Assembly (NCBI GenBank): GCA_951406725.2
Contig: OX597828.1
Span: forward strand, 7,440,001 to 7,504,000
Origin: Octopus vulgaris
Taxonomy: Eukaryota
DNA: 64,000 nucleotides
Direction of reading: 5' to 3'
This document shows, in pieces, positions 275 to 63,204 of this stretch. The notes below the pieces were generated by a model, which had not been told where the DNA came from, did not search any database, and saw only the letters and a list, made by a program, of their open reading frames with translations. Position 1 is the first letter of the stretch; every line of letters starts with the position of its first letter. Made by a program: the position numbers and the translations under genes.

Positions 275-695
<421 letters not shown>

Positions 696-1808: not shown

Positions 1809-2097
1809 TTTCCTTCTCGAGCCACGCTTGGCTCATAAGGGCCGGTTTCCCGGTTTCCTTCGCGTATAGGTTCCCCACCTGGACGGGATGCCGGTCCGTC
1901 GCAGGTGAACTGCAAGATGCAGGAGGAAAGAGTGAGAGAAAGTTGTGGCGAAAGAGTCAGCAGAAATTTGCTATTACCTTCTGCCGGAGCCGCGTGGCGC
2001 TTAGGTGTTTCGCTCATAAACACACACATCGCCCGGTCTGAGATTCGAACCCACGATCCCTCGACCGCGAGTCCGCTGCTCTAACCACTAGGCCATG
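1809..2097 (-). mobile_element. tRNA(Arg)-like SINE, tail type X (resembles octopus OR-type SINEs)
   Basis: Minus strand has A box TGGCCTAGTGG and B box GGTTCGAATCT with a TCG anticodon-like loop. Colinear with the copy at 42299-42589. Confidence 0.85.
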
Positions 2098-3540: not shown

Positions 3541-3737
3541 ATTCGCCATGATAGACGCCATGATAGATCGCTAGCTACTACGCTTTGTTTTCTCTTCTTG
3601 TTTCTTTCTGTGTTCCTTTCTGTGGAAGAGCGTAGGCTCTAAACGTGAAAGACTTTCATTTCCCGAGCGTTAAACTAATACATCTGTTTGTTGTATACGC
3701 CACCTGTCTTCGTTTTTGTATTTTTGTGAACTCTGCC

Positions 3738-5744: not shown

Positions 5745-6045
5745 CCACGTGGTCGACCAGGCTATCAGATGTTGATACACATCACTGGTCACAATGTGCT
5801 TCGCATTGTTTTAGCCTTCAAATGATGCCACCCCGCTAGCTAAGTGAGCAGGCCAACGGCAGAAAGAGTGAGCGAAAGTTGTGGCGAAAGAGTACAGCTG
5901 GGATCGCCGCCTCCCCTGCCGGAGCTTCGTGGAGCTTTGGGTGTTTTCGCTCAATAAACACTCACAACGCCCGGTCTGGGAATCGAAACCGCGATCCTAC
6001 GATCACGAGTCCGCTGCCTTAAACACTGGGCCATTGCGCCTCCAC
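5745..6045 (-). mobile_element. tRNA(Arg)-like SINE, tail type Y
   Basis: Reverse complement of 35417-35710; A and B boxes present. Confidence 0.85.
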
Positions 6046-6046
6046 T

Positions 6047-6081
<35 letters not shown>

Positions 6082-6380
6082 ACAAGCGCACAAACATACC
6101 CACACACACACATATGTATATAAAATATATATGTATGTACATAAAACATTCCAGGTAGATGTATGCACACACAAACGTACGATGAGCTTCTCTCATTTTC
6201 CATCTACTACTAGACCCCAGAACTGTTGTAGAAGCTACGTAGAGGGACTGAACCTCTGTGTGTGTGTGTGTGTGTGTGTATGTATATTTATATATGTATA
6301 TATGTATATATATATATATATATACACATATGTATATAGATATTTATATATATATACACATATATGTATATATATATATG

Positions 6381-6427
<47 letters not shown>

Positions 6428-7564
6428 GTATGTATATATATGTATATATATATATATGTATATATATATATACATATATATACATACATATGTATATATA
6501 TATATATGTACATACACACACATATATATATATAGATAGACAGATAGATAGATATATAATTATATATATATATACATTAGTGAAAAAGTAAAGGGTTACC
6601 CCAAAACGATTACCAATTTGCTCTCAGCTCTTATATTTTATAATATTAAATATATATATAATACACAAACACACATATATTTAAATATATATACATATGT
6701 TCTTTTTTCATTTGTTCAAGTCATTGCACTGTGACCATGCTGGAGCACCGCCTTTAGTCGAGCAAATTGAGCCCAAGACTTATTCTTTGTAAGCCTAGTA
6801 CTTATTCTGTCGGTCCCTTTTGCCGAACCGCTACTTTACGGGAACGTAAACACACAAGCGATGTTGGGGGGACAAACTCAGACACACAAACATATACACA
6901 CACATATATATATAAACATATATACGAGCTTCTTTCAGTTTCCGTCTACCAAATCCAAAGCTTTGGTCGACCCAAGGCTATAGTAAAAGACACTTCACCA
7001 AGACTGAACGCGGAACAACGTGGTTGGTAAACAAGCTACTTATCACACAGCCACTCCTTCAACAAAATGTAAAATATTTTATGGAATTATATCGATATCT
7101 ATCTATGTATCTATCTGTCTTTTACCTACTTCAGTTATTGGGCTGCGCCCTCCCTCAGGTGCCGCGTTGCAGGGTCTTAATCGAACCAATCGACAAAAGT
7201 TTTTTTTTTAAAATTTTTAAATTGCGCCTCCACTTGTGTATATATATATATATATATATATATAAACACAAGCGCACAAACATACCCACACACACACATA
7301 TGTATATAAAATATATATGTATGTACATAAAACATTCCAGGTAGATGTATGCACACACAAACGTACGATGAGCTTCTCTCATTTTCCATCTACTACTAGA
7401 CCCCAGAACTGTTGTAGAAGCTACGTAGAGGGACTGAACCTCTGTGTGTGTGTGTGTGTGTGTATGTATATTTATATATGTATATATGTATATATATATA
7501 TATATATACACATATGTATATAGATATTTATATATATATACACATATATGTATATATATATATG

Positions 7565-7609
<45 letters not shown>

Positions 7610-8406
7610 GTATGTATATATATGTATATATATATATATGTATATATATATATACATATATATACATACATATGTATATATATATATATGTACATACACA
7701 CACATATATATATATAGATAGACAGATAGATAGATATATAATTATATATATATATACATTAGTAAAAAAGTAAAGGGTTACCCCAAAACGATTACCAATT
7801 TGCTCTCAGCTCTTATATTTTATAATATTAAATATATATATAATACACAAACACACATATATTTAAATATATATACATATGTTCTTTTTTCATTTGTTCA
7901 AGTCATTGCACTGTGACCATGCTGGAGCACCGCCTTTAGTCGAGCAAATTGAGCCCAAGACTTATTCTTTGTAAGCCTAGTACTTATTCTGTCGGTCCCT
8001 TTTGCCGAACCGCTACTTTACGGGAACGTAAACACACAAGCGATGTTGGGGGGACAAACTCAGACACACAAACATATACACACACATATATATATAAACA
8101 TATATACGAGCTTCTTTCAGTTTCCGTCTACCAAATCCAAAGCTTTGGTCGACCCAAGGCTATAGTAAAAGACACTTCACCAAGACTGAACGCGGAACAA
8201 CGTGGTTGGTAAACAAGCTACTTATCACACAGCCACTCCTTCAACAAAATGTAAAATATTTTATGGAATTATATCGATATCTATCTATGTATCTATCTGT
8301 CTTTTACCTACTTCAGTTATTGGGCTGCGCCCTCCCTCGGGTGCCGCGTTGCAGGGTCTTAATCGAACCAATCGACAAAAGTTTTTTTTTTTTTTAATTT
8401 TTTAAA
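6033..8406. repeat. near-identical ~1.19-kb tandem duplication (6033-7220 and 7221-~8406)
   Basis: Identical unique segments 1182-1188 bp apart. Visible differences are microsatellite and poly-T lengths and about two substitutions. Confidence 0.92.
6700..7057 (-). mobile_element. CORE-like SINE, duplicated at 7882-8239
   Basis: Family motifs on the minus strand. Confidence 0.8.
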
Positions 8407-9035: not shown

Positions 9036-9221
9036 ACCGCGTGTGTATCGTTGGCGATTTATTTCCTCCGTCTTCCCTTCCTTGGATCTTTCCTTTACCT
9101 ATATTTCTGATGAAGAGCTCCGCTCCAAACGTTAAATCCTCCTTCTTTTCTTCCTTTCCTGAGCGTCCAATAACACGTCCTCGCGTTGTGTTTTCTCTTT
9201 GTGTTTTCATGTTTGGATTAA
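9036..9221 (+). mobile_element. minimal-hammerhead element family B
   Basis: CTGATGAAGAGCTCCGCTCCAAACGTT; ends TTTGGATTAA then (TA)n. Copies at 23146 (-) and 61918 (+). Confidence 0.65.
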
Positions 9222-9354
9222 TATATATATATATATATATATGTAGTATACTATAAACAGTTGTACATCTTGACTGGTTCACGGTGTGTAGTTAAGTTTT
9301 GTTCTAAAATTGAGTGTACATGTACTACTGAGAGTCTAACGTGCGATTTACTCA

Positions 9355-17224: not shown

Positions 17225-17492
<268 letters not shown>

Positions 17493-18905: not shown

Positions 18906-20411
18906 GGAGAGAGAGAGAGAGAGAGAGACAGGTAGATAAATAGATAGATATACGTACATAAATACATACATACATACATACATGCATACATATACGCACA
19001 TTCACACACAACACACACGCACAAATAATTGGGAAATATATATATGTATACATACGGTAAGGCACTGAATCACAACCATTCTTCATCTCCCTTCACGTCA
19101 GAGACATATATGTCGAACTTAAGTACACATACATTCATATATGTAGATACATGCGCATATATATGTATATAGCATTACAAATAGCCGGTGGTTTTGTCAA
19201 AAGTGTAACCCGAGGACCTTGGTTCATGTGACTGATCTCTTCTCCTTGTTGCAAAGGAAATAGAAAAATAACAAACCTACAAAATCATTCATTAGTTTTG
19301 ATTAGGAACAAGGCCAAGTTTTCGTAGAGGAGAGGTCTGGTCGATAAAATCGACCCCATATATTTGTCTAATTTTTATTTTATCGATCTCGGGTGGATGA
19401 AAAGGAAAAATAAAAATTGACTCCTCGGAGATTTGAACTTAAATTTGAAAAGTACGAAACATAATATTGATTTTTATTAAAATTTGGCAGAATTTCATTT
19501 TAAAAAAAAACGACGCATTTACGAGAGAGTTGTAACGCATTGAATTTGCCTGGGTACATTAGTGGTACAGATTGCATGACCTTCGGTTAGATGAAAGCTT
19601 AGTAATCCCTAAAGAGATTTGAACTTACCGTTTAAAGGGCAGAAATATAAGCTAGGTGAGTTAGTCAGTGCACAGCAGTATCGTTTTTATCAACCGCCCT
19701 AATTCTGTCGGAGAATTCTTGAATGAGTGCGATAGATCAATTGCTTTGTATTGATAAAGTTGACCAATATCCAGTGTGCTCGCATTCGAGATTTAGTCTT
19801 ACTTTGCCTTGGGTCCTCAGCTTAAAATGGAATCTTAGAAATGCAAGTCGCGTCTCTGGACATCTAAATCTGCCGATATTCATTCTTCCTCATGTCGAAT
19901 CCCGGTCAGCTTCTAACAAAAAGAAAACGAGAGAGTGGGAATAGAAAATGTAATAGGAATTAACTCTGGTTCTGGATTGTTATTTTAATAAACCGATCAT
20001 AAAAAGATAAAGAAAAACAAGTGGTGGGTGACCGGTGGATTTTGGACTCATTTTGGATAGGTCCAGAACGAATAAACAAATATAGGTTATTCGATGCTTC
20101 AGTGACTTGGCTACTTCACTATAATCTAGCCCGTTTTATAAACATAAGTCAAACTGATTTATTAGTTGGAAGATGCGTGATTCGAACGTGGAATCAAGAC
20201 GCACGAAGCTAAAGATAATAAAACAATACAAAATAATCGCTAAAATCCAAGGTGGCTTACAGCTATGAGTAGTTTAGTGACATCTGTTGCAGTGTACTCT
20301 GAGACATAATTTTATCATTAAACTGCTCCGAGTATTTGTATCCCTTGATGATTACATATATACAAGCAGACACACATATAATATATACACACACACTTAC
20401 AAATATCCTTT

Positions 20412-20566
20412 ATTTTCTCTCCTTGTTTTTCTGTATACCTTTCTGTAGAAGAGGGTAGGCTCGAAATGTAAAATACTTTTTCTATTCCTGAGCGTTATAC
20501 TAATACATCTGTTTATTTTGTACACCACCTGTCTTCGTCTTTTGTTTATTTTCGTAAACTTTCCCT
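20412..20566 (+). mobile_element. minimal-hammerhead element family A
   Basis: CTGTAGAAGAGGGTAGGCTCGAAATGTA; ends at (TA)n. Confidence 0.65.
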
Positions 20567-21985: not shown

Positions 21986-23145
21986 CCCCTCTCATTTATT
22001 CATACACATACTTCTCCACAAAGTGTTTTTAACTTGGAGTTGTCTGTTCGTCAATTAGAATACCATGCGATGTTCTTTCCGGGACGTTACTTATTTGACA
22101 TATTACTGAGATCGGTATTACCAATCAAAACTCTGGAATCGATAAATACATTAATAATCCATTAATGGCACAATTTCTTCACTTTCTCTTTTTCTGTCTG
22201 GAAGAACTCGGCTGTGTTCAGACATGGAAAGAATTGGGCTCCGTTGTCACAAACGGCGTGGCTTGCGTATTGAAAATGTTCATGACACGCGTTATTTAAG
22301 GACATCGAACCAACGAGTCCACTAGTATTTGATGGCTCAAAGCAAGATAAGTCATACTTGTATATATGCAATATTCATAAACACATACATTTTAACGGAT
22401 TTGTTATTTAACTCGAAGACCCCCTAACCATTATTTCTTTACGCCATGCAACATTATTTTTTTATGTAAATGTCAAGGAGTGGTTTGAAGAATACTTGGC
22501 TGTTACTTTTAGTAGATTAGATGAGCACGAACAGGCTCTCTGATTCGAGAATTCGAGCTCAGGATACGAAATGCTACAACAGACACTACAAAGCAGCTCC
22601 TCCGTCTCTCTATCACTTCGAGCAAACCACGACTCCAGACCGCTATTTCTCTATCGACTCCGACAAAAATGGAAAGCAAAATTATCTTCAGTGAAATTCG
22701 AACTCAGGTAGTAAAGAACCGAAATGAATATCACAACATATTCCATCCGATGCTCTAACCACTTTTAGGATTCAGAACATCAGGGTCTCCAAATTTTTAT
22801 TGAGATATCCATTTACATATTCCTGCCTTTTTTCTTCCACTTACCCTCCTTTTATTTCTCCCTATCCAGTTATCTATGAATCCACCTAATAATATATACA
22901 CCCTCGTGATATGTTTTTTATACACACCTTTCGTTCGCTCATCTAACCAGTCGTTTAGTCATTCGTCCATTCCATCCACCTAGCGATTTCTCTACCATTC
23001 ATCCATCTGTTCATACTACATACACCAATCTAATAGACTGGCATTCATGGCTTATCTATCTGTTTACCTGTCTGTCTGTCTGTCTGTCTATCTATATATA
23101 TCTATCTATCTATCTATATGTAATTATATATATATATATATATAG

Positions 23146-23330
23146 TTAATCCAAACAAGAAAACACAGAAAAAAAGAGAAAAAAAACACAGCAACGCAGG
23201 ACGTGGAACAATTAAAGTATTATTGACGCTCAGGAAAGAAGGGAAGGAGGGTTTAACGTTTCGAGCGGAGCTCTTCGTCGGAAACAAGGAGAAGGAAAGA
23301 TCCCAAGGAGGGAAGACAGAGGAGAAAATA
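23146..23330 (-). mobile_element. minimal-hammerhead element family B
   Basis: Minus strand GUUU CCGACGA A GAGC-ucc-GCUC GAAACGUU AAAC; ends at (TA)n. Confidence 0.68.
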
Positions 23331-23614
23331 TTTGAGCTGGTGGTGCTTAAGAGATCACATGTTTGGTTCGGTTCCGTTCGACCTCAAATTTTGCAGTTCT
23401 GAATTCAATTTTCATCCGTATAAACATACATACAGAAATACATATTTACATCCATCCATCATCTAAACCACCCGTCTGTCCGTCTGTCCGTCCATCCATC
23501 TACCCATCTATCCATCCAGTTGCCCCTCTCCCTCCATCCACCATCTATCCATCCATTCATCCCGACCTTCCTTCCTCTCTCTGTCCAACTCTCCTTCCAT
23601 CCCTTCATCCATCC

Positions 23615-29451: not shown

Positions 29452-30044
29452 AAGGCGGTGAGCTGGCAGACACATTAGCACGCCGGGCGAAATGCTTAAC
29501 GGTATTTCGTCTGCGTTACGTTGTGAGTTCAAATTCCGCCGAGGTCGACTTTGCCTTTCATACTTTCGGGGTCGATAAATTAAGTACCACTTACGCTCTG
29601 GGGTCGATGTAATCGACTTAATACCTATGTCTGTCCTTGTTTGTCCCCTCTGTGTTTAGCCCCTTGTGGGTAATAAAGAAATAGGTATTTCGTCTGCCGT
29701 TACGTTCTGAGTTCAAATTCCGCCTTTCATCCTTTCGGGGTCGATAAAATTAAGTACCAGTTACGCACTGGGGTCGATATAATCGACTTAATCCGTTTGT
29801 CTGTCCTTGTTTGTCCCCTCTGTGTTTAGCCCCCTGGGGGTAGTAAAGAAATAGGTATATCGTCTGCCGCTACGTTCTGAGTTCAAATTCTGCTGAGGTC
29901 GACTTTGCCTTTCATCCTTTCGGGGTAGATAAATTAAGTACCAGTTACGCACTGGGGTCGATATAATCGGCTTAATCCGTTTGTCTGTCCTTGTTTGTCC
30001 TCTCTGTGTGTAGCCCCTTGTGGGCAGTAAAGAAATAGGTATTT
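29452..30044 (+). mobile_element. Meta-domain-like SINE with three tandem body+tail units and a 12-bp target-site duplication
   Basis: One head; units start at GGTAT at 29501, 29684 and 29854. GGTATTTGCAAG at 29443-29454 and 30038-30049. Confidence 0.88.
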
Positions 30045-31747: not shown

Positions 31748-33099
31748 GCACATACACCGTATATCAATGTTTATGTACACTTAGTCTATACTCAACATTT
31801 TAATGCTTTTCACGTACTCTCTTAATCTAATGTTATACCAATGTGCATGAACATACATACATTCATTCACACGCGCACAAGTTTGCATCATATATATATA
31901 TATACATATGTGTGTGTGTGTGTGTGTTTATGTGTGTGTATGTGTGTATGTGTGTGTACGTAGACATACACGTTTATACACACATCTCTCACTTTCTCTC
32001 GATATAAATGTACACACACACACACACACACAATTTGCATACGCTTATTCATACAACGACCCACACATCTACATACATAGAGAAAAATCTGTGCACATAA
32101 TCCTGTTCATATTCTCAGTTGTGTGCTATATCTACCGCTAAATCACTGCTGCATTTTCCCCGACGCTTACAGGATTCACCAAATTCTTCATTCCAACTAA
32201 ATAAGAACATCAGTAAAAGAAGTTTGAAATCACGATTGCTGGCTTGTGTGACCAGTTTCCAAACCTGCTGAGCTGATATCCTTATCACTTCTAGCTTAAG
32301 CACAGGGTTAGAAATTTTCAGGTAGAGACTGATCGATGATATCCATGGGAGTATGTGACTGGTACTTTACTTTATCGACCCTAGAAAGAAGAACGACAAT
32401 GTTGATCATGGCACCATTTCAAATCAAAATGTAAGGGACCATAATGAAGCACCCCAAGGATTTTCTCCACTGTCCAACTTTTCTTCTAATTCCCTACAGT
32501 AAATGTGTTTGAATGACTGATTGAAGAAAAAGAGATTCGAACTATCGAATGCTGCTCCACAAGACCAATACTCAAAACTGCTTACGTCTTATTGTTTCCA
32601 AGAGAGGCAAATGATTAGAAACTTGGAGGAGGGGGTGGGGGCAATCGCTTATAGCGACTCAAGTACTTAACTAGGACTTTATTTTCGTGATCCGCGAAAA
32701 AGATGAAAGGAAAAGCTAACCACGGTGGAATATAATCTCTGAATATAAACAATTGAAACAAATACCACAAGGCATTATATCCAATGTTCCCATGCTTCTT
32801 TATTTTATTTTATTCATCAGAAAGATGAATGAAATTGATTCCGGTGTGATTTGAACTCAGAATGCAAGGAAACACAAGTAAACATCACAAGGATTTCCCC
32901 AACGTTCTAAGAATCCTTTTGATTGACTGCACTAAATAAATTAGAATGTAAGCGAGATCTGACCGAAAGCCTTTTGCTTTTCGAGACCAGTATTGCAAAT
33001 TCCAGATATCCATCGCCCTGAACTCTAAGATCTATTAAATAAATGATAAAAAGGCATAAACTAATAAATAAAATAAAATATGACAAAATTATAATCTTA

Positions 33100-33482
33100 C
33101 TAGCAGTATTGCCCGGCGTTGCTCGGGTTTGTAAGGGAAATAACTATAAAGCATTTTTAGAGAGTTATAGCCAAAAAATAGAAAAAAATGGAAAAAAATT
33201 ATGGTAAATTTTTTTTTGAGAGTTAAAACGGTCGAGTTGCGTCCCCTAGACAGTCTGTGGTTTGTGTTTCTGATTCTCGACCCCATGTCGAATTTATCGA
33301 GTTTTTTCAGAACTGGGGGAACTTTTCAAAATTTTCGCTGCGTTAGTTTTGAATTATGACATTGGGCTATGTGTATGTCAAGTTTCATCAGAATCGGTTG
33401 AAAGCCATGGTCAGGGTGAGGGTACAACCTGTCAGACACACAGACACACACACAGACAAACTGCCGTTTATATATAGAGAGA
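33100..33482 (-). mobile_element. non-autonomous Helitron
   Basis: A^TCTCTCTATATATAAACGGCAG 5' end; 3' hairpin plus CTAG^T; highly similar to 57376-57737. Confidence 0.85.
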
Positions 33483-36770: not shown

Positions 36771-38432
36771 CAAAAAGTCGTACCAATTTAAAAAATAAAC
36801 TTAAAACACAATATTTACATACTTTTACATATCTTTATCCAGCTACATGTGACCCATTTTGTCCCACTATCTTTCGCCATGTTGAACTAACTTGATGATC
36901 CCATCCTCCAGAAATTTGCATCTTTGCGGGACATGAACTGTTTAAATGGTTTTTACAGTCTTCCAAAGAACTGACTTTCTCCCTATTAAGAAAATTTTGC
37001 AGATAAATAATTCGTAGGTGCAGGATCAGGTGAGCGCGACGAGTGTTGTAGGATATCGCAACCAAGTTGTACCAAATTCTGTCAAATCTGTAAGGAAACA
37101 TGACATCAAGCGTTTCTTGAAAGAAGACGAGACCGTTCCGGTTGGCTAATTTTGGACGTTTTTCATTGATTGCCTCCTTTATGTCTAATAAGGAACAATT
37201 ATTGTCTAAACTTAATGTCTAATTTTGAAGAAGGTCGTAATGCACTGTACCCTTCCAGTCTCACACGATGGGTGTTACCATCTTCGGATACTAACCAGCT
37301 TTTGGAGTGATTATAAATGATTTCTTTCGTTTTCTTCAAGAGCTTTCTCGCTCCACATTGTTATAAACAATCCATTTTCCCTCACCAGTGATAGTTTTTT
37401 TTTCTTTTCAAAAATGGGGAGTTTTTGCAGCGTTCGAGCAGAGAATTCCAGAAGAAAACGCGGTCCTCTGAATTATTTTCCGTTACATTATGAGGTACTG
37501 AATCAACGCAGGAATTCACGTGATCAAGGGATTTTAAATGCTTTATATGAGATATGTGGAATATCTCCGTGATATCTCGTGTCGTGTAACATGGTTTATT
37601 TTTGATGAGTATTTTGATTTGGTCAACGTCAACTACTCTAGGTCTGTCGGAATATTCGTGGTCTTCCTGAGAAAAAATTTCACACCTGACCTAGCAAACC
37701 CCTTACAAACAGTTCTCTCGGTTATGGCATCATCTCTCTGAGATGCACATTTCTTTCTTTTTGGCTGTTTCTTTAATCATTTACCTGTTACTTGCTTCAG
37801 TCATTGGACTGCAGCCATGCTGGGACATAGCCTTGAAATACTTTAGTCGAAAAACTCGACATCAGTACTTAATTTTTTAAAGCCTAGTAGTTATTCTATC
37901 GGTTTTCCTTGCCGAATTGCTATGTTACGGGAACGTAAGCACATCAACATCAGTTGTAAAGTGGTGATGGTTGTGGAACAAACGCATACACAAAGACTCA
38001 CACACATATAAATATATACATATATATGTACGACAAGTTTCTTTCAATTTCCGTCTCCCAAATCCACTCACAAAGCTCTGGTCTGTCCGAGAATATAATA
38101 GAAGACACCTATCCGTGGTGATACGCAGTGGGACTGAACCCGGAACTGCATGGTTGAGAAGCGAGTTTCTTACCACACAACTACATTTTTAACTTGCCAA
38201 AAATAAAAGGGGATCAAATAACAAAAAGTATCATATTTTCCTCTACTTGCACGTTTTATTTTTTCGTAAAAACTGTAAAAATAAACTATGTACCCTACAA
38301 TCGAATTGAAAGACATGTTAAAATGTAATCTTTCTGTACATATGTCACATACTTCTATCACGGGACAAAACGAAATCACTTCTTTAATCTCCAACTAAAG
38401 AATAATGGTACGAACTTTTTGTCTCAGCCCAA
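36771..38432 (-). pseudogene. decayed mariner transposon (transposase pseudogene) interrupted by a SINE
   Basis: Minus-strand remnants: SVPHNVTE (WVPHEL-like), ITGEGKWIVYNNVERES (TGDEKW-like), SPDPAPTNY (YSPDLAPSDY-like), LQNFLN..SLEDCKNHL, WRKIVGQNG. TIR TTGGGCTGAGACAAAAAGTTCGTACC at 38407-38432 next to TA, with a partial match CAAAAAGTCGTACC at 36771. Confidence 0.85.
37780..38185 (-). mobile_element. CORE-like SINE nested in the mariner
   Basis: Family motifs; splits the transposase N-terminal region. Confidence 0.8.
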
Positions 38433-51387: not shown

Positions 51388-51949
51388 ATTCTTTTCTACA
51401 CTAGGCTCAAGGCCCGAAATTTTGGGGGAGGAGGCCAGTCGATTAGATCAACCTCAATACACAACTGGTACCTTATTTATCGACTTCGAAAGGATGAAAG
51501 GCAAAGTCGACCTCGGTGGAATTAGAACTCAGAACATAAAGACAGACGAAATACCTATTTCTTTACTACCCACAATGGGCTAAACACAGAGAGGACAAAC
51601 AAGGACAGACAAACGGATTAAGTCGTTAATATCGACCCCAGTGCGTAACTGGTAATTATTTAATCGACCCCGAAACGATGAAAGGCAAAGTCGACCTCGG
51701 CGGAATTTGAAATCAGAACGTAGCGGCAGACGAAATACCTATTTCTTTATTACCCACAAGGGGCTAAACACAGAGGGGACAAACAAGGACAGACATAGGT
51801 ATTAAGTCGATCACATCGACCCCAGTGCGTATCTGGTACTTAATTTATCGACCCCGAAAAGATGAAAGGCAAAGTCGACCTCGGCGGCAGACGAAATACC
51901 GCTAAGCATCTCGCCCGGCATGCTAAAGTTTCTGCCAGCTCGCCGCCTT
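51388..51949 (-). mobile_element. Meta-domain-like SINE array: head, two long-tail units, one short-tail unit
   Basis: GAAATACC junctions at ~51548, ~51732 and ~51893. Confidence 0.88.
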
Positions 51950-56451: not shown

Positions 56452-57375
56452 GAACATATTTACATACTTATACACATCTATAGAGCCTTAGTATATCGTG
56501 ATAAGATTCCACACAGTATGTTCCTATTTCAATTTAAGCAATTCCCTTCAAGTTCTCGATGGCCGAAGGATCGATATCCCGAGAGCGTCAGAGCTCAAAT
56601 AACAAGAACAACTCTCACTCTCATTTTTCTCTCATCTTCGCAATACACGGAACACAACCGTATCGGAATATATTTCTTCATTCGAAAGTTTGCTGTAGAA
56701 TAGTGGTCAGCGTTCTTTTTATATATATATATTATTGCATTTTTGCAAAGTGTCTGCAAATAATAACTATAGCAGAAGGTATAAGGCCCTATCTTACGTA
56801 GCTAAGACGGCATAAAAGACGGCAATATCGACCGCAGTATATTACTGGAAACGCTTTTTCATCGATATGTCGCCTTGTTGGCGTTTGTGTATAGATCACT
56901 CGTTAATGAGAGAGATAGGCATATGATCAAAGACACTCTAACAGTGTCTAGTCCTTCGTCATTTCAAATGCCTTCAGTATTCGGTTGCAACCAATTGTTG
57001 CACTGTATTTGTTTTTCAAAAGATTGAAGGGCCTAATTTAAGACAGCAGATCTGACTGATATTGCTGACTGCCTAGAAGCGCCAGCATTGTTATCCTGAG
57101 ATGAAAAACAATATATACGGTTAATTTGAACATATGATGTTATGTACCAAACAAACCCTGTTATGATGCGCTTCACCCTGCAAGAAAAGGTTCGGTTTGG
57201 GAGGGAGGGCTGTCCAGATTTTAGAATTCTGGATAAATGATCGTTTACTTGCAGTACGAAATTAATCACTTTGCTTCTAGAGAATAAACGATTCACATTG
57301 CGACTGTATGTCTCACTGGTTTTCGGTGTTGTGTATATGTTTCTTATATCATTCTTAAATCATTATATAAAACTA

Positions 57376-57737
57376 CTAGCAGTATCGCCCGGCGTTGCTC
57401 GGGTTTGTAAGGGAAATAACTATAAAGCATTTTTAGAGAGTTATAGCCAAAAAATGGAAAAAATATTATGGTAAATTTTTTTTTTAGTTAAAAAGGTTGA
57501 GTTGCGTCCCCTAGACAGTCTGTGGTTTGTGTTTCTGATTCTCGACCCCATGTCGAATTTATCGATTTTTTTCAGAAGTGGGGGAACTTTTCAAAATTTA
57601 GCTTTGAATTATGACATTGGGCTCTGTGTGTGTCAAGTTTCATCAGAATCAGTTGAAAGCCGTGGTCAGGGTGAAGGTACAAGCTAACAGACACACAGAA
57701 ACACACACAGACAAACTGCCGTTTATATATAGAGAGA
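57376..57737 (-). mobile_element. non-autonomous Helitron
   Basis: Same termini and body as 33100-33482. Confidence 0.85.
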
Positions 57738-58232
57738 TTTATACATTTACCGGAATGGTAAAGCTTGGGACGTGGGACATTAAGCAATTCCATGGTGTAA
57801 TGGAACGCGGTATATCTGGAAGATCTTTTGGTTGTTTGGCAAAATCTCGGAGGAGTAAATTTCGATGATGGCGCTGCTGACACCAGTCGATAATATTTAG
57901 CATGATTCTAGATGTAACTGAGTGTATACGTGTGTGTGTGAAATAATTTACTGTGATACATCCGACTTCAATCGATGATACACACACGTACATATATATA
58001 CATACCTTCATACACACACGCAAGTAACCACATAAAAGCAGCTTCAAGAAATTCTAAAAATTTGTGGAGAGTTAGGGCTTCGAACGAACAAACAACACCA
58101 GAGTAGAAGCACAGACTAAACAATCGACGAATGAAAACTTTAAGAGGTGTTAGGCCAAGACGAAATGTAATGGGTAACGCCTGAGAGAAATTTTGAAAGG
58201 ATATATATATATATATATTCTCTCCATTTTTT

Positions 58233-58397
58233 CTCTCCTTTTTCTCTCTCCTTGTTTTTTTCTGTGTATCTTTCTGTCGAAGAGCGTAGGCTCGAAACGT
58301 AAAAGACTTTTTCTATTCCTGAGCGCTATACTAATACATTTGTTTGTTTGTACTCCACCTGCCTTCGGTTTTTGTTTATTTTCGTATAAATTTCCCT
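58233..58397 (+). mobile_element. minimal-hammerhead element family A
   Basis: UCUUU CUGUCGA A GAGC-guag-GCUC GAAACGUA AAAGA. Confidence 0.68.
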
Positions 58398-59093
58398 TTA
58401 TATATATACACATACATATATGTACATAAACAACTTATAAACAAGGAGAGAAGAAAAAATTCCAATGCCAAATATGCCGAAATATTGACTTAATCGTCAA
58501 TAACCATATAATTTATCACTATAAGCATGCGTCTCGAAAGTAAGCCTATAGAAATTTCTAAAAAATTCGTTATTATCGGATTGGTCCCAATTTCTGAGTT
58601 AATTCATTTAGAATTTTCTCGTCATCGGCGATAAATACGATAAACCTTTAAAGATATTTTTTTAATATGTTGGCCATTGATAAAAATCTTTTCGAAGATT
58701 TTTTATCCTATATTAGATATAAATTTAATACTATTCATATATGTACATATATATAATAAGGGTAACGTAAGATCCAAGGATCTAAGTGTAGGAGGTTTGT
58801 AAGCATCAAAGCTGTCTATGGCAGGTATAGAACCAAAAAGTGGACCATGCTCGTTCAGGAACAATAACAATTTATTGGCGTCGAAGGTTAATTACTTTTT
58901 CCCATAATAAACTTATGGGAAAATTCAGTTAGCTGAAAATTTCTGGATAGCGCAGTTAGCAACTTGAGATGCTATGAATACAAATAAAAGTCGCTTGCTA
59001 GGAAGCTTATGTAGTTTGTATTTTACTTGTTATACTCCCTCAACTTGGATCCATCCATCCCACCATCAGTCCCTCCCTCACTCCCGCCATACA

Positions 59094-59177
<84 letters not shown>

Positions 59178-59180
<3 letters not shown>

Positions 59181-59377
59181 AGAGTTTACGAAAAAACAAA
59201 AGACGAAGACAGGTGGTATACAAAACAAACAGATGTATTAGTATAACGCTCAGGAATAGAAAAAGTCTTTTACGTTTCGAGCCTACGCTCTTCTGCAGAA
59301 AGGGATGCTAGAAAATACAAGGAGAAAAACAAGGAGAGAAAAAAATGTGTGTAGTGGCTAACGATCTATCCTGGTGA
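59178..59377 (-). mobile_element. minimal-hammerhead element family A
   Basis: Minus strand CTTTCTGCAGAAGAGCGTAGGCTCGAAACGTAAAAG; ends at (TA)n. Confidence 0.68.
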
Positions 59378-59536
59378 CATATATATTTATATACATACAT
59401 ACATATACACACAAATATGTAAACTGCTGTTTATATTAATTTTATATATACACAGTAGCGAATCTCTAAATCATTCAATTATTTGAATGATGAAAACATA
59501 TATACTAATGGCGAAGCGAGTCCGAAAATTGCCGAA

Positions 59537-59607
59537 GTCGAATTGTCTTAACTGTTGAGGCAACAGAAATTGCCGCAACTACCGCGTCAATATTAAAAAT
59601 TCTCGAT
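59537..59607 (+). ncRNA. degenerate type I hammerhead (unit 1)
   Basis: CUGUUGA, stem II GGCAA/UUGCC, GCAA instead of GAAA, AUA at the site. Confidence 0.6.
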
Positions 59608-59890
59608 CGACTCTTCAGAAGATTGCAGTCCCCGTTAGTGTATGTGTTTCCATTCATGTGCGTTAACTACAGCGTTTGCGCTGTTTAGTTCTTATTTCTA
59701 GCATTGCGGGTGTTGTCTATCACCCTAGTCGCATTTAGTTACATTTGTAATTCTCCTTTTTGGCAAAACATTGCAAACAGCTGTTTATATCCATTTTATA
59801 TATACACATTAGCGAATTTCTAAATCATCCAATTATTTGGATGATGAAAATATAAATACAAATGGCAAAGCGAGTCCGGAAAAACCTGAA

Positions 59891-59961
59891 GTCGAGCTCT
59901 TTTAACTGATGAGGCAACCGAAATAGCCGAAACTAACGAGTCAGTATTAAGAATTCTCGAT
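59891..59961 (+). ncRNA. type I hammerhead ribozyme with canonical core (unit 2)
   Basis: Stem I UUUUAA/UUAAGA plus distal GUCGAG/CUCGAU; CUGAUGA (59906-59912); stem II GGC/GCC; GAAA; stem III ACU/AGU; GUA site at 59946. Confidence 0.82.
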
Positions 59962-60130
59962 CGGCACTTTTCGGACGATTATGGTCTCTGTTAGTGTAAA
60001 TGTGTTCATTCATGTGCGCTAACTACAGCGGTGTAGCTCTTATTTCTAGCAATGTAAGTGTTTCCTAACACCCTACTCGCATTTAATGAAATTTGTAATT
60101 CTCCTTTTTAGCGAAACATTGCAAACTGCT

Positions 60131-60190
<60 letters not shown>

Positions 60191-60254
60191 ATGAGTTTGT
60201 GTATGTAGGAAGTTTGTGTATGTATATATGAATCATCAGTGGAAGTTGGACATA

Positions 60255-60430
60255 CAGGGTGCGATGCGTAAATTGTAACCATTTTAGCTTTTAGTTTGGC
60301 GCATGTGCATTGTTTGTTTTTCAGTTTGTCGACTGCACAGTATATTAAGGTGCGTTGGGCACCGGCTGTGAGAAAAATTTCAGAGTGTTTCAGCATCAAT
60401 CTGAGGACATGTACCAAGAGTGATAAAAAT
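60255..60430 (+). mobile_element. possible Tc1/mariner terminal fragment
   Basis: TA|CAGGGTG start typical of Tc1/mariner TIRs; no partner end seen. Confidence 0.35.
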
Positions 60431-60647
60431 CAAACATCCAGTCAACGTCATAGTGTTTGCAGTGATCACTTGACAACCGTTGGTGGTTTGTTTACGTCCC
60501 TATAACTTAGCGGTTTGGTTTAAGTAGTAGGTTAGATTCATCCAACTAAAGATTCTTCAAAGCGGTCTAATGAAGGCAGTAGTTTAATGAATGAAACAAG
60601 AAAATGATAAAGATATGTGTATATCGACGCACATGCACAAATATATA

Positions 60648-60698
<51 letters not shown>

Positions 60699-61917
60699 GC
60701 ACACACACACACAAATACACACATTCACGCACACGTGCACATATATACATATATGTTACTGCACGTGCATTCACTTATGTAGATCCGAACCATGTGTGTT
60801 TGTTTCTTTATGAACCATGTGTGCTTGAATTTCTGGTTCTACTTTGTTTTTCTTTTTTAATATTCATTTAGCTGATAGGAACCCGTAAGAGTCCCGAGTA
60901 TATATTTATTTGGTGTATATCTAACTCAGAGTACATAGCATTCAAGTAATTTATATTGTTCTAAGCTATTCAGGTTGAGGGGAGCACGTTCGAAATGTTT
61001 CGGAAAAGAAAAATCAATTCATGATGTATTTTGAGAGATATTTCCAATTTATTGCTCGCAGCTTAGGTTAATCTTAAAACTGTTAATGCTCTCTTTCTGT
61101 ATGTTTCTACGGGCAAAGAAAATTGAATTCACTGACATTTCAAATGAAATTTTCACACCTCATGTCTTAACTAGTCCATCTCTGGGGTATATACAACTAT
61201 GTTAAGTTCAAATATATTATAAGTTGTCCTCCAGCGAAAGAAACTTCTGTTTATGTTTTTAATGTACACCCAGCTGCCAGAAATACATATATTTCCGGGG
61301 TATAATATAATGTGTATTTATTTTAATGCATTTACCTTGTAATGTATTTAATCAAATAACATTATATTAATTTATATTTCTCAGAGAATTTCGGTTATTG
61401 AGATTTTGCGAGAATTTTCCGCAGGAAAATATATTCTTGTCGAATACTTAGAAATATTTATATTATGTGTCTCTACATCTATTAATGGGTCTATGAACTA
61501 CTATAAAGGCATGCATCATACCAATAATATCCTGCCACGCACATTAGCGAAACGTATATATTATAACACTGTAACATATTATGCAACCTGATGAGGTGCA
61601 CTGTGAGTACATTTGATTCCATTATATCGTTCCCCACCTACTAGGGAGAAGTGCAGATGTAAACCGAAACGATCGGAGTGCTAACCCATGTTTACAGTAC
61701 ACTGCCTTCCCTATCAATAATTTCACATATACTAAACGTATACCGACGATTTCCTTATTTAGATCCTACGACTAAAACGCTTTACCATGGATGACGCCTG
61801 GCAGCCGTATGTGATGAACGTGCTCTCAATTCATACTACTATGAACATAGCCAAAGCAAGGTTTGGATGCTACATTTTAAAGTCTCCTGTCTAAATTTTA
61901 ATTTCAAACATAACCTC

Positions 61918-62110
61918 TGTGTGTGTGGCAATTTTTTCCCCTCTGTCTTCTCTTCTCTGGATCTTTCCTTCTCCTATGTTTCCGACGAAGAGCTCCGCTC
62001 GAAACTTTATACCCTCCTTCTTTCCTTCTTTCCTGAGCGTCCAATAATACTATATTTGTTCCACGTCCTCGCGTTGATGTGTTTTTTGTGCTTTCATGTT
62101 TGGATTAACT
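61918..62110 (+). mobile_element. minimal-hammerhead element family B
   Basis: CCGACGAAGAGCTCCGCTCGAAAC; ends TTTGGATTAAC then (TA)n. Confidence 0.65.
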
Positions 62111-62131
62111 ATATATATATATATATATATT

Positions 62132-62476
62132 CTTTTATTCATTTACTTGTTTCAGTCATTTGACTGCGGCCATGCTGGAGCACCACCTTTAGTCGAGCAA
62201 ATCGAACCCAGAACTTATTCTTTGTAAGCCTAGTACTTATTCTATCGGTTTCTTTAGACGTAAACCCACCAGCATCGGTTGGCAAGCGATGTTTGGGGGA
62301 CAGACACAGACACACAAACATATACACACACATACATATATACATATATACAACGGGCTTCTTTCCGTTTCCGTCTACCAAATCCAATCACAAGACTTTG
62401 GTCGAAGTTGAAGACACTGAACCCAGAACCATGTGGTTTGTATGCAAGCTACTTACCACATAGCCACTCCTAAGCC
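62132..62476 (-). mobile_element. CORE-like SINE with internal deletions; another 5' half at 63280-63423
   Basis: Family motifs. Confidence 0.8.
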
Positions 62477-62593
62477 TATATATATATATATAAATGCATA
62501 CTTACATAATGTGATATATGATATAATATACTAGCAAACGCACCCGTCCTTTGATGGTACTTTTTGAACTACCTAGAAAGTTTGAATCCATAT

Positions 62594-62760
62594 AAGAAAG
62601 TCACAGGTAAAAATGTCACAGGAAAAGAAGTCACGGCAATAAGGTTACAGGGGTGGTGTCCGGGAGGGGAGTGTCCGAGCGGGTTTTGTCCTAGGAGTTT
62701 TTTCCGGATCTCATAAATTTATTGTGACTTTTTTTCCTGTGAATTTATTACCGGTCACCG
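62594..62760. repeat. ~14-15-bp AAAAAGTCACAGG-type repeats in inverted orientation (MITE-like remnant)
   Basis: Four GTCAC/GTTAC units at 62594-62650 and inverted TGTGACTTTTTTTCCTGTGA at ~62723. Confidence 0.45.
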
Positions 62761-63204
62761 AAAGGGTTTATGAGTAGCACGGCAATATATGTTTCCAATT
62801 AACCTAGGAAAGGAAAATGAAACTGAAATGCTGGTTATTGTTGAGGTCATTGCACTTTCATGATCATAGAACATGTGAGTTTCCAAGCGATGCAAAGTAG
62901 AGTTCCTGAAGTTTTGCGGGAGTAGATTTCGGATAATGACTACAAAATATAATTGTTTTACATGAAACCGAAATTTCTTGTCAGAAACGGCCACATAAAT
63001 TGTATAAGGAATTTGAAGGAAGATGTTGAAACATCCTCTCTGCAACTTTATTTTATTCAACAGCAAAGGGAGCTATTTTTTCGAAGAGATAAGCTAAGAA
63101 ACGCCCCTTTATTCTGTCTTCCTACATAGCCTGCGCATATACTAACAGCGAATGCTACATAAAGTTAAATTGGTAAGATACGTATAGCTTTCGCTAGTTG
63201 AAAC

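Follow-up and report, generated by a model that had tools for sequence, protein, structure and literature searches.

An old two-unit copy of a hammerhead-bearing repeat family, likely a non-LTR retrozyme, ending at a (TA)n microsatellite

The window (the whole stretch of 64,000 nucleotides that was analysed) contains, on its plus strand, a short non-coding array of two head-to-tail repeat units and the first 16 bp of a third, flanked on both sides by TA-rich microsatellites (Table 1). The two units and the 16-bp third start at the (TA)n tract, as proposed in the initial annotation, were reproduced, with 290 of 346 aligned columns identical between the units (83.8%; 81.7–81.9% by BLAST). The accompanying statement that there is no ORF was borne out as well, as ATG ORFs longer than 50 aa are absent from the array. 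The units abut directly with no internal region, and on that basis, rather than from a separate scan for PBS and PPT, an LTR/PBS/PPT layout is absent. The array does not appear in the TRF listing, and by BLAST the units match nothing else in the 64-kb window. No target-site duplication was seen at the array; the 16-bp repeat belongs to the unit, and because other copies of the family cover these 16 bp, they are derived from the element and are not a duplicated target. A scan for bacterial promoters and terminators returned 3 against 5.7 expected, which is uninformative for such DNA.

Table 1. Positions of the array, its hammerhead motifs and the short repeats that end at (TA)n tracts within the window.
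Feature	Position	Strand	Remark
Degenerate TA/CATA microsatellite	59378-59420	.	5' side of array; putative other half of target
Repeat unit 1	59421-59774	+	354 bp, GC 0.37
Repeat unit 2	59775-60122	+	348 bp, GC 0.36
16-bp third-unit start, terminal redundancy	60123-60138	+	runs into (TA)n
(TA)n/(TATG)n microsatellite	60139-60192	.	3' end of array; putative insertion target
Decayed type I hammerhead of unit 1	59537-59607	+	site after 59592
Type I hammerhead of unit 2	59891-59961	+	predicted cut after A59946
Unit 2 core	CUGAUGA 59906-59912, GAAA 59929-59932, GUA 59944-59946	+	all intact
Unit 2 outer helix I	59891-59896/59956-59961	+	6/6 pairs
Unit 2 inner helix I	59900-59905/59947-59952	+	6/6 pairs
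Unit 2 helix II	59913-59917/59924-59928	+	4/5 pairs, one mismatch
Unit 2 helix III	59932-59936/59941-59945	+	4/5 pairs, one mismatch
Alternative 6-bp helix	59905-59910 with 59940-59945	+	sequesters CUGA core; predicted minimum-energy fold of unit 2
Would-be monomer between two cut sites	59593-59946	+	354 nt; putative product, unit 1 ribozyme broken
Family A, ~170-bp repeat	59178-59344	-	minimal-hammerhead-like fold without core A6; ends at (TA)n
Family A copy	58227-58396	+	ends at (TA)n
Family A copies	3558-3737, 17229-17385, 20406-20565	+	each ends at (TA)n
Second short repeat, three copies	9052-9222, 23140-23332, 61926-62110	+, -, +	each ends at (TA)n

Each unit carries a motif of the type I hammerhead ribozyme. 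In unit 2, helix I is bipartite, its two halves (6 + 6 pairs) flanking a 3×3 internal loop, and the helix III region is self-complementary at 10 of 14 positions. This hammerhead had been described as complete, which holds for the core and the bipartite helix I but not for helix II and helix III, each of which has a mismatch. It was the sole match to a type I hammerhead descriptor on both strands of the 64-kb window, while 0 of 1000 dinucleotide-shuffled windows matched with the same parameters; a looser descriptor gave 0.08 hits per window. Rfam returned no hit at gathering score across the window, and no ribozyme family was present among the 28 matches at E ≤ 10 in 57500–63000. With regard to the loop 1–loop 2 contacts of canonical type I ribozymes, the motif has a 6-bp inner helix I, a 3×3 internal loop with U's and a 6-nt loop II ending in A, together with a helix II of 5 bp; in mussel retrozymes the usual contact bases are missing (PMC7229834). 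In unit 1, the three core or site mutations listed in the initial annotation were confirmed (CUGUUGA at 59552–59558, GCAA at 59575–59578 and AUA at the site, with A6 and A13 changed), and the helices are damaged besides: helix III retains 2 of 5 pairs and each half of helix I has one mismatch, while helix II has 5 of 5 pairs.

Other hammerhead-like motifs were also observed. A single-copy CUGAUGA ... GAAAC motif with a helix II region of ~70 nt lies at 61588–61680 (+); it fails the descriptor at the cleavage site and is possibly a decayed hammerhead. Three motif loci on metagenome contigs (L001:1975–2045, plus strand; L002, about 1985–2055, minus strand; L003, about 610–680, minus strand) were rejected as relatives, being GC-rich, non-tandem and alike only in 26–30 nt of the core and helix II; by eye, they are unrelated type III motifs.

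To describe the repeat beyond this locus, contigs from 4 of the 24 listed sequencing runs were aligned at 80% likeness to one permuted unit (59680–60030). Sequence words of the unit were found at shares of 0.49–0.86 in three DNA runs of organism A and at small shares in organisms B, C and D, and the listing gives no RNA run as a carrier of them; small shares of 0.04–0.06 in runs outside the alignment, organism C among them, were left aside. DNA contigs matching the unit numbered 698 in organism A, 1035 in B and 786 in D, of which 475, 609 and 476, respectively, were less than 90% alike to it, and the search for further copies that had been suggested earlier thus reveals a large diverged family in three organisms. 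One variant letter at single positions was common to 83, 98 and 91 different contigs, and each genome therefore has no fewer than tens, and probably hundreds, of such loci. The summed contig depth in run X1, up to 19,000 versus 18–75 for single listed contigs, likewise suggests hundreds of copies, though contigs give neither array length nor true copy number. In addition, a run whose RNA origin is only a guess contributed 60 contigs that match the unit, none of them 99% alike; they may be DNA or read-through, and contigs show neither ends, nor strand, nor circles. The depth of this run is low over 59800–59895 compared with the DNA runs, which reflects little cover in one contig set and is not evidence.

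The arrangement of these other copies was read from the pieces crossing the unit ends. The 16-bp terminal repeat was spanned, with at least 31 letters on each side, by 5 of the 32 pieces listed (2775 further), and those five carry 33–43 other letters, which places them at other loci. Other pieces span 59810–60028, and joints link 60026–60029 to 59683/4; on a permuted-monomer reference, such end-to-start joints merely continue the unit. As diverged contigs bridge every part of the 350-bp ring, no single linear monomer explains the pattern, and other loci of the family are tandem or permuted. In two runs, 21–22 contigs leave the alignment at 59726 (59726–59748) with a common different segment and form a subfamily.

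The family majority was then compared with the ribozyme of unit 2, with majority shares expressed as percentages of depth in the three DNA runs (organisms A, B and D). Two of the 22 proposed helix pairs are mismatched in unit 2, and the majority letters mend both, at 59925 (90, 90 and 92%) and at 59935 (88, 93 and 94%). A wobble at 59901 becomes C-G in the majority (87, 82 and 88%), and the majority letter at 59939 (71, 74 and 71%) makes helix III and its loop a perfect 14-nt palindrome, while two more majority differences, 59899 and 59919, lie in loops. Among the 40 variant rows listed (57 further), the core positions are untouched and no helix pair is broken in the majority. Consensuses of loose ends before 59940 (28, 41, 37 and 5 contigs) run through an intact core and are two bases shorter; from these loose ends alone, and with no entry in the indel table, a further variant may be read whose palindromic helix III measures 12 nt. 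The ribozyme predicted for the family comprises an inner helix I of 6 bp, a helix II of 5 bp closed by a 6-nt loop, and a helix III of 4–5 bp in which the ACUGA of the core recurs on the 5' arm. These comparisons indicate that the predicted hammerhead is a trait of the family and not an oddity of one locus. Hundreds of diverged contigs, the continuity of the ring and the helix-restoring majority letters all support the ribozyme-bearing tandem retroelement family that had been proposed from the locus.

The locus itself stands at some distance from this majority. In run X1, 25 majority differences were found among the 40 variant rows listed (57 further), which puts the locus at a distance of no less than 7% from the family majority. 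Comparison by eye of 17 positions where unit 2 has a non-majority letter gave 12 at which unit 1 agrees with the family, 2 at which it has yet another letter and 3 at which both units carry an identical non-family letter. The two units would thus go back to one slightly variant template, having been near-identical at first and then decayed mostly apart. A distance near 0.09 has been equated with about 25 million years (PMC13282606), a rate that would apply here if the host is an octopus, as the SINEs and microsatellites of the window would suggest.

Folding of unit 2 was predicted to favour another structure, with −5.7 kcal/mol for the hammerhead versus −19.1 kcal/mol for the minimum-energy alternative, and a pair probability of 0.0 for helix III. 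In the alternative fold, it is the 3' arm of helix III that holds the CUGA core in a duplex; the match of this alternative helix to the core was spotted post hoc. Because nearest-neighbour folding ignores tertiary contacts, the misfolding of unit 2 is a prediction. No majority change is displayed at the positions of the alternative helix, which would therefore be available to the family too. Given the mismatches and the predicted misfold of unit 2, a failure of 59885–59965 to cleave would say little against the family. The 354-nt would-be monomer, folded as a circle, reaches −76.1 kcal/mol with 58% of its bases paired and a z of −1.8 versus 100 shuffles, values that belong to a decayed copy.

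Within the window, all eight of the short minimal-hammerhead repeats have (TA)n at their 3' end in the sense of the ribozyme, and the array does likewise; about 0.9% of window positions have a TA run at such a short distance. All five copies of family A in the 64 kb have core A6 replaced, the minimal hammerhead of the second short repeat is of textbook Penelope type (CYGANGA, extra A, 4-bp helix II, GAAACG), and the extra base before helix II, a Penelope-type mark, is present in the folds of both short families. Family A repeats are probable 3' termini of Penelope-like elements (PLEs). The initial annotation had named putative Penelope-like remnants adjacent to the array: the remnants are indeed probable PLE termini, but they are dispersed (5 copies in 64 kb), no sequence similarity to the unit was detectable by BLAST, and no RT or GIY-YIG remnant gave a Pfam match at gathering score among 300 of the 303 filtered frames of at least 55 aa. 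Since neither an RT/GIY-YIG remnant nor sequence shared with the remnants was found, the RT partner is suggested by the target only, and the value of the remnants lies in the shared (TA)n polarity rather than in proximity. Among the contigs, 12 and 17 in two runs stop at 59790 and go on into mixed TA-rich sequence, although these stops are confounded by two unit 2 mismatches at 59791–59792.

Other repeats were observed in the window besides these. Broken remnants of a Tc1/mariner (SETMAR-like) transposase lie at 36838–37690 (−), and only generic mariner clusters were returned by the Atlas. A dispersed repeat of ~350 bp is present at 57374–57720 and 33098–33465 (also 2718–2950), two copies being 89% alike, and presumably resembles a Helitron/Helentron-type non-autonomous element. 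Inverted arrays of 170–184-bp SINE-like units occupy 29552–30044 and 51463–51887 (2.8 and 2.3 copies) and are 92% complementary over 298 bp. An apparent local duplication at about 5840–7000 and 7200–8200, with a spacing of about 1.18 kb, contains repeated ORFs and microsatellites.

Published work on PLEs offers possible enzymes for such a target. A bias towards microsatellites is known for both Neptune and Naiad elements; the Naiads, described as without hammerheads in the available text, include members in Octopus (Craig et al. 2021, 10.1101/2021.04.23.441226). In work on a purified Poseidon protein (Frangieh et al. 2024, PMC11167929), the protein nicks AT-rich DNA, and RT of Poseidon_Ac begins internally, at a constant position about 90 nt beyond the ribozyme cut. 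For insertion of Poseidon_Ac in vitro, unprocessed RNA was used and ribozyme cleavage was dispensable (PMC11167929), and tandems can therefore arise without circles. The initiation site of Poseidon_Ac is non-homologous to its target (PMC11167929), and priming through base pairs between the target and the TA-rich tract of the unit, which we had considered, is unneeded. The 3' end of the array lies about 190 nt past the presumed cut, compared with about 90 nt in Poseidon_Ac and about 95–100 nt in the short remnants of the window. Internal initiation of this kind suits a circular template and, equally, a linear tandem transcript.

The family was compared with known hammerhead-bearing repeats. Metazoan non-LTR retrozymes are 150–450-bp tandems with a GC content below 50% (Cervera & de la Pena 2020, PMC7229834), and mussel retrozyme repeats measure 350–390 bp (PMC7229834). 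The repeat described here shares with them multi-copy, non-coding tandem units with one type I hammerhead each, a GC content below 50%, co-occurrence with Penelope-type minimal hammerheads, a helix I of 6 bp followed by an internal loop, and a palindromic loop III. In canonical metazoan type I ribozymes, helices I, II and III measure 6, 4 and 1–2 bp (Cervera & de la Pena 2014, PMC4209133), whereas the family has 5 bp in helix II and a wholly palindromic helix III of 4–5 bp whose 5' arm repeats the core. Unlike active retrozymes, the copy here is without two intact ribozymes; no description of (TA)n insertion by retrozymes was found in the literature searched. With PLEs, the array has in common head-to-tail tandems, a fixed 3' end with a type I hammerhead upstream of it, an AT-rich or (TA)n target and no clear target-site duplication; it differs in having no RT/GIY-YIG ORF and no spacer between units, in a core that runs straight into G10.1, and in its helix III of 4–5 bp. 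Schistosoma Sm-alpha and newt/axolotl satellite-2 resemble it in type I topology and in ~330–350-bp tandem satellite-like DNA (PMC6155905, PMC7229834), and a palindromic helix III permits dimeric folding between neighbouring units in all of them, but the family-form helix III would be long enough for monomeric cleavage. This likeness is one of topology and repeat size, and no Rfam hammerhead model matches the unit.

Given the tandem units of 150–450 bp, the type I core, the absence of coding sequence, the GC content and the copy number, we consider it likely, with a probability of about 0.7, that the array represents an old and likely inactive copy, two units long, of a hammerhead repeat family, which is likely a non-LTR retrozyme using a Penelope-like enzyme. 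Li et al. 2026 regard two consecutive intact ribozymes as the mark of an active retrozyme (10.64898/2026.07.22.740005); at this locus, A6 and A13 of unit 1 are changed and its helix III is broken. With the core of unit 1 broken and unit 2 predicted to misfold, the locus could not release a monomer, and it is probably a dead fossil copy. Even among predicted dimers of Xenopus, 8 of 9 did not cleave, and retrozymes have been described as non-autonomous PLE derivatives (10.64898/2026.07.22.740005). On the retrozyme life cycle set out in PMC7229834 and PMC7761336, intact tandem copies would be transcribed, the transcripts would be cut by their own hammerheads into ~350-nt monomers, and the monomers would be ligated into circles by a host ligase. 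A borrowed Penelope-like RT/endonuclease would then return the sequence of the circles to (TA)n microsatellites; a microsatellite-biased element of Neptune or Naiad type would be the best candidate for this enzyme. If the enzyme initiates inside the RNA, always at the position about 190 nt 3' of the cut site, copying of slightly more than two unit lengths would yield unit-unit-16 bp, and the decay of the two units after insertion would be largely independent.

Some of the same observations could also be accommodated if the unit were the pseudo-LTR (pLTR) or 3' terminus of an autonomous PLE or of a derivative, with tandems made from linear RNA and no free circles, an explanation that we regard as rather unlikely. 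The (TA)n polarity of the array is that of the window's Penelope-type remnants, PLEs form tandems and their pLTRs bear hammerheads (PMC4209133, PMC11167929), cleavage is dispensable for insertion in vitro (PMC11167929), Xenopus retrozymes and pLTRs are homologous (10.64898/2026.07.22.740005), and 16–25% of the aligned contigs continue into unlike sequence. However, metazoan PLE ribozymes are minimal, having no helix III, an extra base between A9 and G10.1 and a short helix I (PMC4209133), whereas the motif here does without the extra base and combines a full bipartite helix I with a helix III that is stable in its family form. Moreover, other copies bridge the 350-bp ring with no ORF between units, and the window is without a coding remnant.

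Local DNA-level duplication of a SINE-like hammerhead monomer, by slippage or unequal crossover at the 16-bp repeat, would likewise give the order repeat-unit-repeat-unit-repeat, as expected from recombination between short terminal repeats, and both ends of the array do fall within the same 16 bp. The non-majority letters common to both units at 3 of 17 positions, scored by eye, allow for such a duplication. Yet the head-to-tail junction occurs at other loci in all three organisms (5 of the 32 listed pieces), and the family letter of unit 1 at 12 of 17 positions is what independent decay of near-identical copies would leave, and we judge a local origin to be very improbable. A chance look-alike of a hammerhead in a local duplication would account for the missing Rfam match and for a hammerhead that is not the predicted minimum-energy fold, but it is already largely refuted and has next to no likelihood: no shuffled window matched the descriptor, the majority letters mend exactly the broken pairs, and the length variant retains the palindrome.

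Within the retrozyme reading, a more specific version can be put forward tentatively, although we think it rather unlikely: a cephalopod family set into (TA)n by a microsatellite-targeting PLE enzyme that initiates internally on an RNA circle, with an off switch in its ribozyme. The switch would be helix III, a perfect palindrome of 12 or 14 nt with ACUGA in its 5' arm. The 3' arm could then pair with its own 5' arm (active monomer), with that of a neighbour (active dimer) or with the core (inactive circle). How animal retrozyme circles avoid re-cutting is a question left open in the available text of PMC7229834. If this version is true, the borrowed enzyme would be named and the avoidance of re-cutting by these circles would be explained.

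Non-LTR retrozymes are known from corals, mussels, insects, fish and amphibians, and as they already occur in so many animal groups, one more family is unsurprising. No description of cephalopod retrozymes was found in the literature searched, nor any mention of a cephalopod ribozyme in the main texts of PMC7229834, PMC7761336 and PMC13282606 as far as these were available; supplements, subscription journals or Repbase/Dfam may list one, and existing catalogues may carry the family as an unknown repeat, a satellite or a PLE. The fossil locus matters only as a pointer to younger copies. The family adds a probable cephalopod retrozyme, conserved across at least three organisms. Its (TA)n 3' end, shared with Penelope-type remnants, gives a handle on which enzyme mobilises retrozymes, and its long palindromic helix III, predicted to be able to sequester the core, gives a handle on how circles stay uncut.
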